From: Gammaproteobacteria bacterium
GTDB taxonomy: Bacteria; Pseudomonadota; Gammaproteobacteria; JAJFKO01
NCBI GenBank assembly: GCA_021773175.1
Contig: JAJFKO010000067.1
Location: 118,611-182,610, forward strand
Direction: 5' to 3'
DNA: 64,000 nucleotides
How positions within the stretch are numbered: the first letter of the stretch is position 1; each line of letters starts with the position of its first letter. Shown piece by piece: positions 43,290 through 46,642 of this stretch. The notes beneath the pieces are model-generated. The model did no database searches. It was not told the origin of the DNA and saw only the letters and a list, made by a program, of their open reading frames with translations. A program made the translations under genes and the position numbers.

Positions 43290-44078
43290 ATGAGTGTACT
43301 TAAAGATAAAAAAATAAACTTTCTTATGGCTAACTATCCCGAGGAAGGCGTTGCAACATCAGCTTGGTTAGAAAAACATGGCTATTATAAACAGCTTGTG
43401 AAGCAGTATTGCGACGCTGGTTGGTTAACAAGACTTGGGAAAGGTGCATATAGTCGGTTAAAAGATCCAGTATCCTGGGAGGGGGCCGTTAAAGCACTGC
43501 AAGATCAACGACAGTTAGATGTGCATGTCGGAGGGATCAGTGCATTAGCTTTATATGGTATAACTCAATATCTACTCTTCAACCAAAACGACGCCTCATT
43601 TTCTTTATTTAGTACCAAGTTAAAAAAAACGCGATTGCCAGCATGGTTTTTACAGTATTTTAAACATGGGCATTATTATCAGAAGAAACTATTTTCTAGC
43701 GACCTAGGTGTAACGCCCAAAGAAGTTGGTAATATAACGTTACAAGTATCTATACCGGAAAGAGCAATTTTAGAAGTTTTAGCGATAACACCAGATAAAA
43801 TAACGATTCAACATGCCTCTGAACTTATAGAAAATTTAAATAGGCTAAGAAGCCATTTGGTTCAGGCTCAGCTAGAAGCGTGTTTATCTATTAAAGCTAA
43901 GCGTTTATTTTTATGTTTAGCAGAACTATATAATTTGGAATTTTTTAATGAGCTTGATATAGAAAAAATAGACTTAGGCTCAGGAAAGCGTGTAATAGGG
44001 AAGGGTGGTACTTACTATTCTAAATGGCAACTTAGTTTGCCGAGTGAGTTAGATACTGATTTTAGTATAGGAGAGTGA
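43290..44078 (+). CDS. AbiEi-family antitoxin/transcriptional regulator-like protein (type IV TA / abortive-infection module)
   Basis: N-terminal AbiEi_4-like motif …SAWLEKHGYYKQLVKQYCDAGWLTRLGKGAYSRL (the characteristic …kkGwL.Rv.rG.Y pattern). Sits 1 nt upstream of a DUF1814 nucleotidyltransferase gene. Confidence 0.55.
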   Translation: MSVLKDKKINFLMANYPEEGVATSAWLEKHGYYKQLVKQYCDAGWLTRLGKGAYSRLKDPVSWEGAVKALQDQRQLDVHVGGISALALYGITQYLLFNQNDASFSLFSTKLKKTRLPAWFLQYFKHGHYYQKKLFSSDLGVTPKEVGNITLQVSIPERAILEVLAITPDKITIQHASELIENLNRLRSHLVQAQLEACLSIKAKRLFLCLAELYNLEFFNELDIEKIDLGSGKRVIGKGGTYYSKWQLSLPSELDTDFSIGE

Positions 44079-44079
44079 T

Positions 44080-45000
44080 GTGCATAGAAATGACTATGTT
44101 TCCCAAGTTGAGTTGCTACTCGATTGCTTACCTGTATTAAAAGACCAAGAGTATTTTGCTATAAAAGGTGGTACAGCCATTAATTTCTTTATAAGAGAAT
44201 TACCTAGATTATCTATTGATATCGATTTAACGTTTATAGATGGAGAGTTAGGGCGTATTAATGCTATTAATAAAATTGAGGAAGGATTACGGACGCTTAC
44301 TCAGAGAATAAAAAATCGCGATCGTCATAATGAAGTTGTAGATGTTAGGACAAAAGAAGGATTTCTACATAAATTGATTGTTGCTAGAGATGGAATAAAG
44401 ATAAAAATTGAGCCTAACTTTATTATGCGAGGTATCTTAAACCCATTAGAAGCTTCGAAGATATGCCAATCGATAGAAGATAAATTTGCCTATAGCGTTA
44501 AAGATATCCCCTTAGTTTCTACTGATGAGCTATACGCCGGGAAAATATGTGCAGCATTAAGTAGACAGCATCCAAGAGACTTTTTTGATATAAAGATTCT
44601 AATGGAAAATGAAGGGTTAACAAAAAGCATGTGTACTGCTTTCGTTGTTTATCTTGCCTGTTCGCCAAGACCCATACATGAACTTTTGAATCCTCACATG
44701 ACGTTAAGTAGAGATATTTATGAAAATGAATTCGTGAATATGTCAGTGATGCCTATTCGTTTTGAAGAACTCGTGGAAACAAGAGAGAGATTAATTAATG
44801 AAGTTAATAATAAACTAACTGAAAAAGAGCGTAAGTTTCTGTTTTTAATAAAAGAGGGAAAGCCAGATTATACGCTTTTACCCTATCAAAATTTAGATAA
44901 ACTACCCGCTTTACAATGGAAGGTCTTAAATGTTCAGAGAATGAATAAAAATAAACATAAGGAGATGTTGGGGAAGCTCAGAGATATTTTACAAATATAG
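44080..45000 (+). CDS. AbiEii/AbiGii-family nucleotidyltransferase toxin-like protein (DUF1814). GTG start.
   Basis: AIKGGTAINFFIRELPRLSIDIDLTF matches the AbiEii signature (.KGGTAL……R.SEDIDL.). Typical ~300-aa size and tight coupling to the upstream AbiEi-like gene. Confidence 0.6.
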   Translation: MHRNDYVSQVELLLDCLPVLKDQEYFAIKGGTAINFFIRELPRLSIDIDLTFIDGELGRINAINKIEEGLRTLTQRIKNRDRHNEVVDVRTKEGFLHKLIVARDGIKIKIEPNFIMRGILNPLEASKICQSIEDKFAYSVKDIPLVSTDELYAGKICAALSRQHPRDFFDIKILMENEGLTKSMCTAFVVYLACSPRPIHELLNPHMTLSRDIYENEFVNMSVMPIRFEELVETRERLINEVNNKLTEKERKFLFLIKEGKPDYTLLPYQNLDKLPALQWKVLNVQRMNKNKHKEMLGKLRDILQI

Positions 45001-45355
45001 TTTTAAATAATGTTATATAATGCTGCAATTCCTGCGTTGTTAACCTATATATTCTTACTTCAAAATACCCAAACAGATGCTAGACCTGTAAAAAGGTTTA
45101 GGTAGACGACATGAATCTTTATAAAAACATCGCTCTTAACGCTAACGTCATCACCTAACTTCATTTAAAACATAACAGGAATTACAGCTAAATAATTTTG
45201 AATTAAGACTATAAAATTTTAATAATGATGTTATTATTCCGCGCAAATTTTAACCTTTTTATGTTGGCGTAATGTTTTCAAGAAGATTTCTTCGACACTC
45301 ACCACGATTTTTCTCTTCAACAACACGGCGAACGAAGGATCTTCGTTTAGTTGCA

Positions 45356-46642
45356 ATGGATTGGGGGCGCGAGAAAGATCCACCTTTGTCGTTAGGGCAC
45401 GCGAGTATATTAGCGGAATTCCAGACTCGAGCCGTGCCGATTAGGCAGCTGACGACGTCGGTTACGGAGCCCGCTTTTTCAGTGGAACGTATCATACGAT
45501 TTTTAATGACAGGGGCGACGTCTAACACTTATGCAGCGCTAGGCGCCTTTGTCTGGAATGAGCCGTACACACAGCAGCTTTTAAAAATGTTACAAAGACA
45601 AAATTTCCCTGGCAAAGTTCTTCTTGGTGGTCCACAAGTAAGTTATGTGCCTCAAGGCATTGAAGACTATTATCCGACAGCGGATGTATTTGTTAGAGGT
45701 TATGCCGAACATGCACTGTTAAATTTCGCAACCTCACCATTAGAGCAGCCGAGCATTGCAGGAATTAGTTATGCGGGCATACCAAGTTTGGGGTCGCAAG
45801 CCATACCAGATTTCGACAACTTGGCATCGCCGTTTTTAACTGGAATTATAAAACCGCAGCGATTTATACGCATTCTGACGCAGATGGGTTGTCCATTTGC
45901 CTGCGCGTTTTGCCAACATCGCGAACCTAATGCCACGATGAAGCGGCGACATGTGGATTTATCGAGAGTCGAGCAAGAAGCACAATGGGTTTTAGAAAAT
46001 CCTGTTATACAAGATATTGCCGTTCTCGACCCAACCTTTAACTCAGGGCCTAATTATTTGAAATTTTTAGCGGCAATGCGCGGTTATACTGGCAAGCTTG
46101 CTTTGCAAGTGCGCGCAGAAATGATTAAGCCTGAATTTCTAGATGCGGTTGCGGCTATTAATGAAACCGGTGAGGTTGTTTTAGAAATCGGGCTGCAAAC
46201 GATTCACAAAAATGAATTAAAAATCATTGATAGGCCAACGAACCTAAGTAAAATTTCACGAGTATTTGCTGAGCTACGTCAGCGCAACGTTAAATTTGAA
46301 GTATCATTAATCTTTGGTTTGCCAGAACAAACAGTTGAATCATTTAAAGAAGCTATAGAATTTTGTAAACGCTCTGGTGCCTTTAATATTTATGCTTTTC
46401 CATTGATGTTATTACGTGGAACGCCATTGTACGAGCAACGCAAACACTTGCAGCTTGAGGAGTCGGCGACGGAATCATTCGGTAAAATACCTAGATTACA
46501 AGGCGAGGCAGGTATTCCTCATGTTGTTGCATCGCCGAGTTTTACCTATGCGGATTGGTTACAAATGGCAGAGTTGGCGGAACAATTGCATGATTATAAT
46601 GAATCCGATAAAGACCATTATGCAATGAGTCTTACCCCCTGA
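45356..46642 (+). CDS. Radical SAM protein, probably with N-terminal B12-binding-like domain (class B-like)
   Basis: CxxxCxxC cluster (MGCPFACAFCQH) lies ~180 aa into the protein, as in B12-binding-domain radical SAM enzymes. The start is uncertain: the listed ORF begins at 45272, but its first ~28 codons look non-coding and GC-rich. Confidence 0.6.
   Translation: MDWGREKDPPLSLGHASILAEFQTRAVPIRQLTTSVTEPAFSVERIIRFLMTGATSNTYAALGAFVWNEPYTQQLLKMLQRQNFPGKVLLGGPQVSYVPQGIEDYYPTADVFVRGYAEHALLNFATSPLEQPSIAGISYAGIPSLGSQAIPDFDNLASPFLTGIIKPQRFIRILTQMGCPFACAFCQHREPNATMKRRHVDLSRVEQEAQWVLENPVIQDIAVLDPTFNSGPNYLKFLAAMRGYTGKLALQVRAEMIKPEFLDAVAAINETGEVVLEIGLQTIHKNELKIIDRPTNLSKISRVFAELRQRNVKFEVSLIFGLPEQTVESFKEAIEFCKRSGAFNIYAFPLMLLRGTPLYEQRKHLQLEESATESFGKIPRLQGEAGIPHVVASPSFTYADWLQMAELAEQLHDYNESDKDHYAMSLTP

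Follow-up and report, generated by a model that had tools for sequence, protein, structure and literature searches.

The DNA analysed here, called the window below, is a stretch of 64,000 nucleotides (nt) from a member of the Gammaproteobacteria (positions 118,611 to 182,610 of contig JAJFKO010000067.1, assembly GCA_021773175.1). Three consecutive genes on its forward strand are the subject of this study: abiEi and abiEii, which encode the antitoxin and the toxin of an AbiE abortive-infection pair, and a gene for a radical S-adenosylmethionine (SAM) enzyme, which begins after a gap of 271 bp (Table 1). An initial annotation of this DNA had grouped the three genes as a small defence island.

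Table 1. Features of the window, with positions counted from its first nucleotide (aa, amino acids; ORF, open reading frame; TPR, tetratricopeptide repeat; STAND, signal transduction ATPases with numerous domains).
Feature	Position	Strand	Description
Putative abiE promoter/operator region	43080-43289	+	promoter-like site 43254-43281; imperfect inverted repeats 43144-43164/43183-43203 and 43228-43246/43269-43287
abiEi, predicted antitoxin/repressor, 262 aa	43290-44078	+	Pfam AbiEi_3_N 7e-27, AbiEi_3 1.2e-35; PADLOC AbiEi PDLC02227 4.5e-72, full length
Predicted translational-coupling junction	44066-44079	+	Shine-Dalgarno AGGAG within the 3' end of abiEi; TGA stop; 1-nt spacer; abiEii GTG
abiEii, predicted DUF1814 nucleotidyltransferase toxin, 306 aa, GTG start	44080-45000	+	Pfam AbiEii (PF08843) 6.8e-29; PADLOC PDLC02290 3.3e-104
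AT-rich intergenic element, long imperfect hairpin	44996-45214	.	~45-nt arms 44996-45041 and 45169-45214, ~127-nt spacer (repeat scan)
Radical SAM gene, class-B type, 456 aa	45272-46642	+	Pfam Radical_SAM 5.9e-16; PADLOC PDC-M51A 3.6e-120; solo PDC-M51A family member
N-terminal extension of the radical SAM protein, 22 residues, MFSRRFLRHSPRFFSSTTRRTK	45272-45337	+	basic, Ser/Thr-rich, predicted disordered
[4Fe-4S] cluster motif C207-P-F-A-C211-A-F-C214, then Q215-H216	45890-45913	+	invariant in 20 homologs; conserved in both clades
Two small ORFs directly 3' of the radical SAM gene	46727-47251 (174 aa), 47481-48083 (200 aa)	+	signal-peptide-like hydrophobic N-termini
1180-aa neighbour	38012-41554	-	Walker A GLPGSGKTT, TPR, C-terminal ankyrin repeats; STAND-like layout
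PDC-S01 single-gene candidate, AAA_14 + DUF4143 ATPase	about 6528-7859	-	PADLOC 9.5e-153; ~36 kb from the abiE and radical SAM genes
906-aa protein	23204-25924	+	Pkinase 4.5e-6, below gathering score; possible eukaryotic-like kinase effector
HD-domain ORF	58163-59530	+	sole Pfam HD match in the window; weak PADLOC dGTPase match 3e-9
ORF of at least 1,414 codons, running past the window end	about 59760-64000	+	only markedly GC-richer stretch, 46-49% GC

The AbiE pair is what the initial annotation had taken it to be: direct reading, Pfam and PADLOC agree on two intact genes. The AbiEi of the window is 48-50% identical to the AbiEi proteins of homologous pairs, and AbiEii scores 101.9 bits against Pfam PF08843, which has a gathering cutoff of 22.5. 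At the junction (GGA GAG TGA t GTG) a single nucleotide separates stop and start, with AGGAG 7 nt upstream of the GTG, and the two genes appear to form a translationally coupled bicistron. The AbiEi protein of Streptococcus agalactiae binds inverted repeats in its promoter (PMC3985639); the repeats that a scan detected upstream of the window's abiEi are imperfect, AT-rich and 74-81% complementary, and the promoter-like sites found by a consensus scan are no commoner than in shuffled sequences.

The nucleotidyltransferase motifs of AbiEii are complete. Dy et al. (2014; PMC3985639) define them as hG[GS]x15DhD with an Arg in motif II, K...R for motif III and +DxxD for motif IV, and the window protein has G30-G31 in motif I, R43, D47 and D49 in motif II, K155...R162 in motif III and R166-D167-F-F-D170 in motif IV. 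The stretch KGGTAINFF...LSIDIDLTF named in the initial annotation is present, and the catalytic acidic residues are in place on alignment. All of the motif residues are invariant in 22 homologs (45-59% identity), as is S45, which lies two residues before D47 and aligns with the phospho-acceptor T65 of the S. agalactiae AbiEii, the equivalent of MenT3 S78. In S. agalactiae, AbiEi induces autophosphorylation of AbiEii at T65, two residues before the first catalytic Asp (bioRxiv 10.64898/2026.01.19.700257). The same 2026 preprint reclassifies AbiE as type VII, so that the type IV label first given to the pair stands as the conventional annotation only.

Sequence searches of the PDB returned chance matches only for AbiEi and AbiEii, and a phmmer comparison of AbiEii with the DUF1814 toxins of the PDB gave no match at E <= 1; we therefore turned to a fold search for AbiEii. 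The AlphaFold2 (AF2) model built from the 22-sequence alignment has a mean predicted local distance difference test (pLDDT) score of 92.1 and matched MenT4 in Foldseek (6y56; E 5.4e-7; query-normalized TM-score, TMq, 0.62), with MenT3 and MenT1 also among the matches. As modelled, AbiEii has the MenT fold.

The combination of AbiEi_3 and AbiEii is conserved in six homologous loci (L082-L085, L089 and L090), and its flanks are unrelated between genomes: an ISL3 fragment; gloB, rnhA and dnaQ; a conjugative element with relaxase and type IV secretion system (T4SS) genes; and a U-box effector with an AAA_14/DUF4143 gene. The candidates scored include about 7,300 homologs, and homologs occur on 317 plasmid records, a plasmid of Aquicella lusitana among them. 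The unrelated flanks and the plasmid homologs suggest that abiE moves as an independent module of two genes; within its family, which is well known, the pair is ordinary. Judging from characterised homologs, AbiEii, like the MenT toxins, would add nucleotides to the acceptor ends of tRNAs and so stop translation. The N-terminal winged-helix domain of AbiEi would repress the operon, and its C-terminal domain would neutralise the toxin by inducing autophosphorylation of the Ser before the DxD motif, here Ser45. If the supply of antitoxin were lost, through phage shut-off or loss of the locus, then the toxin would be freed and growth would be arrested. Apart from being a further intact example from an amoeba-associated lineage, the pair is without novelty.

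The radical SAM gene had been described as following the pair within about 270 bp and encoding 430-450 aa; the distance is right and the protein is slightly longer. It scores 59.5 bits against Pfam Radical_SAM (cutoff 29.5). The B12-binding family of Pfam is matched at 5e-5 with 23.5 bits, under its gathering cutoff of 32.1, and NCBIfam gives weak, sub-threshold matches to many class-B and related families. The CxxxCxxC motif (C207-x3-C211-x2-C214) lies far from the N-terminus, as had been noticed. Pfam shows no SPASM match, and C365 is the only invariant Cys C-terminal of the motif in the 20-sequence alignment. A profile made from these 20 sequences matched CysS (9e-30) and TokK (2e-28) in the PDB, with both domains covered. 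In the structure predicted for the protein (AF2; pLDDT 86.5, predicted TM-score, pTM, 0.85) residues 1-18 are disordered (pLDDT < 50), and Foldseek again places CysS and TokK first (E ~2e-23, TMq 0.72-0.74), followed by TsrM, MgmA, AprD4 and OxsB. Mouse viperin (6q2p) comes at rank 50 with a TMq of 0.33, aligned over the core barrel only. A fold search of BFVD gave generic class-B matches only, and PADLOC matched the protein to PDC-M51A as the sole family, with no pVip match. We therefore read the protein, from sequence and model alike, as class-B-like and not viperin-like, in agreement with the initial annotation. If it works as other members of the superfamily do, a [4Fe-4S] cluster on C207, C211 and C214 would cleave SAM to the 5'-deoxyadenosyl radical, and the Rossmann domain at the N-terminus would probably bind cobalamin, used in a methyl transfer or a rearrangement.

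The radical SAM gene has a link to defence at the level of databases, one of which the initial annotation could not have known. The match to PADLOC PDC-M51A (399.6 bits) aligns residues 21-444 with model positions 4-416 of 420. Payne et al. (2024; bioRxiv 10.1101/2024.01.29.577857) give PDC-M51 only as cassette CAS_00169 (FAM_01858>>FAM_00353) and count it among 145 "guilt-by-embedding" candidates, nominated by their embedding in known systems. A literature search returned no paper on "PDC-M51", none on defence by a radical SAM enzyme plus thymidylate kinase, and none on comparable cobalamin radical SAM enzymes from eukaryotes or mitochondria. Ophion, which combines radical SAM, PHP and phosphoribosyltransferase (PRTase) components, is a different system, and the radical SAM genes of Wolbachia wBol1 are unrelated.

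We fetched the loci of the 80 best radical SAM homologs and clustered their ORFs for recurrent neighbours; the GTDB representatives scanned did not include the genome of the window. The sole recurrent neighbour is a gene of about 190 aa directly downstream of the radical SAM gene. PADLOC matches its product to PDC-M51B (2e-58 and 5e-73) and also to VakA, and Pfam to Thymidylate_kin; the identification of PDC-M51B is empirical and comes from loci of Myxococcota and Oceanobacter. These matches indicate that PDC-M51 comprises a radical SAM enzyme and a nucleotide kinase of the thymidylate kinase family. Such a pairing recalls viperin and CMPK2, the viperins of prokaryotes that come with kinases, and OxsB, a cobalamin radical SAM enzyme that modifies nucleotides. 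Among cultured organisms, the complete PDC-M51 pair with the best score is that of Oceanobacter kriegii (L070; radical SAM gene 10001-11242, kinase gene 11298-11861). A PADLOC scan of the neighbours of kinase-linked loci was uninformative, dominated by Ser/Thr kinases.

The kinase gene is confined to the more distant homologs. Among loci whose radical SAM protein is at least 48% identical to that of the window it was found in none of 19, of which 16 have at least 1 kb of downstream sequence, and below 48% identity it was found in about 19 of 61. A tblastn search of the window with nine PDC-M51B proteins likewise gave nothing credible. The window copy thus appears to be an orphan component of a candidate system and not a PDC-M51 system. 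Its protein is 36-44% identical to the kinase-linked members and has most conserved residues in common with them: of the 115 positions at which the window's clade is conserved, 67 show conservation in the kinase-linked clade too, which suggests that the chemistry is probably the same in both. Because the sister-clade gene shares an operon with a thymidylate-kinase-like gene, a nucleotide is our preferred guess for the substrate, by a weak analogy.

If the chemistry is shared, one could suppose that the radical SAM protein is an active antiviral enzyme in its own right, which makes a modified nucleotide (compare viperin and OxsB) with the help of housekeeping, host or elsewhere-encoded kinases. 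The full-length match to PDC-M51A and the shared conserved positions fit this explanation, as do the location of the gene beside a bona fide defence or toxin-antitoxin module and the patchy distribution of a small family (621 of 1.84 billion cluster representatives at E <= 1e-30). However, PDC-M51 itself is only a candidate system, the kinase gene is missing throughout the window's clade, the neighbours in that clade are mostly housekeeping or effector-like genes with few defence matches, and the family has no member in the plasmid and phage collections, where the radical SAM proteins all fall below 30% identity. We consider this explanation unlikely.

Several observations bear on the question whether the pair and the radical SAM gene belong together. 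AbiEi or AbiEii relatives occur within 10 kb of the radical SAM homolog in none of the 80 loci, and in four independent AbiE homolog contexts no radical SAM gene flanks the pair. The neighbours of the radical SAM gene also vary. In the 84 ORFs flanking 19 genes of the close clade no Pfam or PADLOC family appears more than twice; these neighbours include tRNA synthetases, LytB, IMPDH, LysR regulators, and ankyrin and Sel1 proteins, with scattered defence matches only. Three further homologs have as neighbours either metG, nth, apbC, dcd, hsp70 and smpB or effector-like genes of the Sel1, TPR and ankyrin kinds. In the relatives, to which the initial annotation had looked for a decision, the gene essentially stands in unrelated and variable contexts, mostly of housekeeping or effector-like genes, and this goes against the proposed grouping.

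Base composition points in the same direction. The GC content at third codon positions (GC3) is 37% in the radical SAM gene, 27-28% in abiEi and abiEii and 29.5% in dnaA. The GC-rich 5' end that had been remarked on is confirmed: over its first 300 nt the radical SAM gene has 49.3% GC, and the 150-bp maximum of 54.7% lies at the 99.5th percentile of the window (mean 39.3%). The spacer between abiEii and this gene is AT-rich (28.8% GC) and has a promoter-like site of its own at 45198-45226, 46 nt upstream of the radical SAM start (consensus scan). It also contains the greater part of a long imperfect hairpin, which begins within the last codons of abiEii. Neither the window nor the fetched loci hold a second copy of this hairpin, Rfam has no match to it, and folding of the entire spacer gives no significant score (z = -1.0). 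The missing second copy and the fold score led us to reject a miniature inverted-repeat transposable element (MITE); the hairpin could be a terminator or insulator, or an insertion scar. A cobalamin or SAM riboswitch was not found in the spacer by Rfam, whose sole match was at chance level (E 0.22).

The lack of AbiE linkage in all 80 loci, the variable neighbours, the four AbiE contexts without a radical SAM gene and the difference in GC3 together suggest independence. We conclude that two independent genetic units probably stand side by side here, and that their adjacency is most likely a coincidence. What had been called a defence island is most likely one real AbiE system and one orphan component of a candidate system, adjacent by chance; with variable contexts, no linked AbiE genes, no PDC-M51B and differing base composition, the functional grouping is not supported.

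An alternative explanation is that the three genes make up a single defence island or three-gene system whose products cooperate; the radical SAM enzyme, for example, would make or modify a nucleotide that AbiEii uses. The genes lie on the same strand, 271 bp apart, a scan found no terminator-like site between abiEii and the radical SAM gene, PADLOC counts the radical SAM family among its defence candidates, and both enzymes plausibly handle nucleotides. However, this explanation has to contend with the same linkage and GC3 data, and all AbiE pairs characterised so far work on their own (PMC3985639); we regard it as very improbable.

Some points nevertheless weigh against two unconnected units. 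Defence genes cluster, and adjacency itself is therefore a weak positive sign of a link. The missing terminator-like site leaves room for read-through co-transcription. The radical SAM family was nominated as a defence candidate because of its embedding in known systems (bioRxiv 10.1101/2024.01.29.577857), and the O. kriegii pair lies 3.6 kb from the HsdS gene of a type I restriction-modification system (15455-16990), with an AAA-ATPase-like gene between them. The search for the kinase covered 64 kb of the genome, and a kinase partner could be encoded elsewhere.

In a neighbour-joining tree of the radical SAM family the window protein has the longest branch of all and diverges basally within a large clade, where eukaryotes are interleaved with Legionellales, Coxiellaceae, Rickettsiaceae and other sequences from metagenome-assembled genomes (MAGs). 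The other clade holds the kinase-linked sequences of Myxococcota, Planctomycetota, archaea and Oceanobacter. The eukaryotes in the window's clade are Polysphondylium, the dictyostelid Tieghemostelium, the fungus Paraglomus and the diatom Attheya, with 51-55% identity to the window protein. On its contig of 227 kb, the Tieghemostelium gene is accompanied by Arf and ZZ-domain genes, and these neighbours indicate that it is genuinely eukaryotic. The window protein belongs to a clade that was probably exchanged between protists and their intracellular bacteria.

The N-terminal extension of the window protein has seven Arg or Lys residues, zero acidic residues and an R-x-F-S motif. After codon 1 the gene has no in-frame ATG, GTG or TTG until the first conserved beta-strand (residues 23-30) is reached, and we therefore take the 22 residues to be encoded. 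Across 108 members of the clade the median extension is 18 residues, and extensions of the same character occur in most members, the eukaryotic ones included; examples are MMRRVCRQTARCFSAGR in Attheya, ...FKRFYSIKNF in Tieghemostelium and the metagenomic MFSRFFSKKPSR and MFSRTSFVKLKKTR. The extension looks like a mitochondrial presequence. Homologs with presequence-like tails are also found on clearly bacterial contigs, and the tail may have been inherited from a eukaryotic ancestor, may bind nucleic acid or, speculatively, may serve a translocated effector as its signal. A twin-arginine translocation (Tat) signal, which SRRFL might suggest by its resemblance to S-R-R-x-F-L-K, was ruled out because no hydrophobic h-region follows.

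These observations allow for a role of the radical SAM protein outside of defence, as a cellular, cobalamin-dependent methylase or rearrangement enzyme that acts on RNA, protein, lipid or a cofactor, is mitochondrial in protists and was exchanged horizontally with amoeba-associated bacteria. The eukaryotic homologs with their identities and the contig of the Tieghemostelium gene, the presequence-like N-termini across the clade, the bacterial homolog among metG, nth, apbC, dcd, hsp70 and smpB, and the fact that the nearest solved folds are biosynthetic methylases are all consistent with this role. It sits less well with the patchy distribution among Legionellales (cultured Legionella, Coxiella and Aquicella are not represented among the 80 best loci), with the lack of a conserved operon partner that would indicate a pathway, and with the sister clade's pairing with a kinase that resembles the PADLOC VakA model. 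We regard a cellular role as a serious possibility, though one that falls somewhat short of probable.

The same N-terminus, MFSRRFLRHSPRFFSS, with its R-x-F-S motif and zero acidic residues, could also mark the protein as a translocated effector, sent to the mitochondria of the host, where the iron-sulfur cluster (ISC) machinery would load its Fe-S cluster. Similar extensions are present on bacterial homologs in effector-rich, Legionellales-like contigs, and the window is rich in orphan, ankyrin-type and kinase-like ORFs. However, one of the homologs that have an N-terminus of this type is surrounded by housekeeping genes, and a basic tail may do no more than bind nucleic acid, or may be left over from a eukaryotic origin; an effector role seems to us highly unlikely.

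The long branch raises the question whether the window copy still functions at all. Before the cluster cysteines (45866-45913, residues 199-214) the window protein reads FIRILTQMGCPFAC where the clade consensus is FIRWETQRGCPFRC. Two of the substitutions beside the cluster loop, E202L and R205M, fall at positions at least 95% conserved in the clade, and W201I and R210A are also off consensus. These substitutions, the basal position of the longest branch and the atypical GC content would be expected if the gene were drifting to loss of function after a recent acquisition. Yet the gene has an intact, full-length reading frame, the protein keeps the Cys triad as well as 115 positions that are conserved in at least 95% of the clade, and the AF2 model is confident. 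Decay of the gene is therefore doubtful, and we think it improbable.

Beyond the role of the window copy, the protein may represent an unrecognised cross-kingdom class-B lineage, with one bacterial sister branch tied to a thymidylate-kinase-family gene, following the logic of viperin and CMPK2, and another branch common to protists, probably in their mitochondria, and their intracellular bacteria. We put this forward tentatively, as rather unlikely in this full form. More useful than the AbiE pair is the finding that PDC-M51 appears to consist of a B12-type radical SAM protein and a thymidylate-kinase-like protein, and that one branch of the radical SAM family lacks the kinase and includes bona fide eukaryotes. 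Should the product of the family be a modified nucleotide, then this would be a second radical-SAM, nucleotide-based mechanism of immunity or interference, conserved between bacteria and eukaryotes and independent of viperin; in Legionellales, alternatively, it could be an effector that performs radical SAM chemistry inside host mitochondria. The family is small, with a few hundred clusters, and bears on two questions, the existence of a second radical-SAM nucleotide-modifying defence and the role of the protist homologs. The cross-kingdom distribution and the viperin-like gene pairing, both of them hypotheses, are the most interesting outcome of this analysis.

The surroundings of the three genes are chromosomal and origin-proximal, with rnpA, yidC, dnaA (with the AsdA antisense RNA), dnaN and recF; the window further contains gyrB, lipopolysaccharide (LPS)-core genes and glnE. 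DnaA is 72% identical to that of Aquicella lusitana and 70-75% identical to those of gammaproteobacterial MAGs, from which we read the host as an uncultured Legionellales/Coxiellaceae-like bacterium. The abiE and radical SAM genes lie about 10 kb from dnaA in a variable stretch, and a run of orphan and eukaryotic-like ORFs is found downstream of recF; otherwise the window holds largely housekeeping and orphan genes.

The initial annotation had placed the pair next to a STAND cluster. The 1180-aa neighbour does combine a Walker A motif, TPR and ankyrin repeats, but Pfam gave only TPR and ankyrin matches for it and none to NB-ARC or NACHT, PADLOC gave none to Avs and matched only the ankyrin part (PDC-M72A, 1.1e-7), and a 500-aa orphan ORF lies between this gene and abiEi. 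In appearance it is closer to a eukaryotic-like effector than to the known antiviral STAND proteins. Apart from the abiE and radical SAM genes, the PADLOC matches in the window are of three kinds only: PDC-S01, the one strong match among them, generic ATPase matches attributable to RecF, and a weak dGTPase-like HD match, which comes from a batch scan and was assigned to its ORF by domain and not by a per-ORF result. The two small ORFs downstream of the radical SAM gene have no Pfam match and no credible PADLOC match (for the 200-aa ORF a chance-level ZorA, E 0.02). Judged by these matches, the window around abiE is not a dense defence island.

Two side observations concern the homolog loci. 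The AAA_14/DUF4143 family of PDC-S01 also adjoins the AbiE pair in L090 and radical SAM homologs in L013 and L015. In the bacterial locus L086 (6895-9398) the radical SAM gene directly follows a dCTP deaminase gene, which is itself closely preceded by an ApbC/Mrp Fe-S carrier; this arrangement is absent from the families seen at least twice in the 84 flanking ORFs of the 19 loci.

Compared with known systems, the pair has the bicistronic order of antitoxin and then toxin in common with AbiE of S. agalactiae and Lactococcus lactis and with MenAT of Mycobacterium tuberculosis. Its AbiEii shares with these toxins the DUF1814 nucleotidyltransferase motifs I-IV, the x15 spacing and the motif II Arg, the Ser/Thr phospho-acceptor two residues before DxD and the MenT-like fold, whereas its identity to MenT toxins in structural alignments is only 12-15%. 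The antitoxins differ as well: that of the window belongs to Pfam AbiEi_3_N/AbiEi_3, whereas that of S. agalactiae is a COG5340 protein, which we take to be of the AbiEi_4 type. The host, too, is unlike those of the S. agalactiae, L. lactis and M. tuberculosis systems, being an intracellular-type Legionellales bacterium. The radical SAM protein has the N-terminal Rossmann-like domain and the radical SAM TIM-barrel core of TokK, CysS, TsrM, OxsB and the cobalamin-free AprD4. It is about 20% identical to these enzymes and lacks the C-terminal domain of about 200 residues that TokK and CysS have. AprD4 shows that the class-B fold can occur without cobalamin; the fold and profile of the window protein align with TokK and CysS across the Rossmann domain. 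From viperin it differs in fold and family, and the likeness is one of analogy, confined to the sister clade, where a radical SAM gene stands next to a gene of the thymidylate kinase family.

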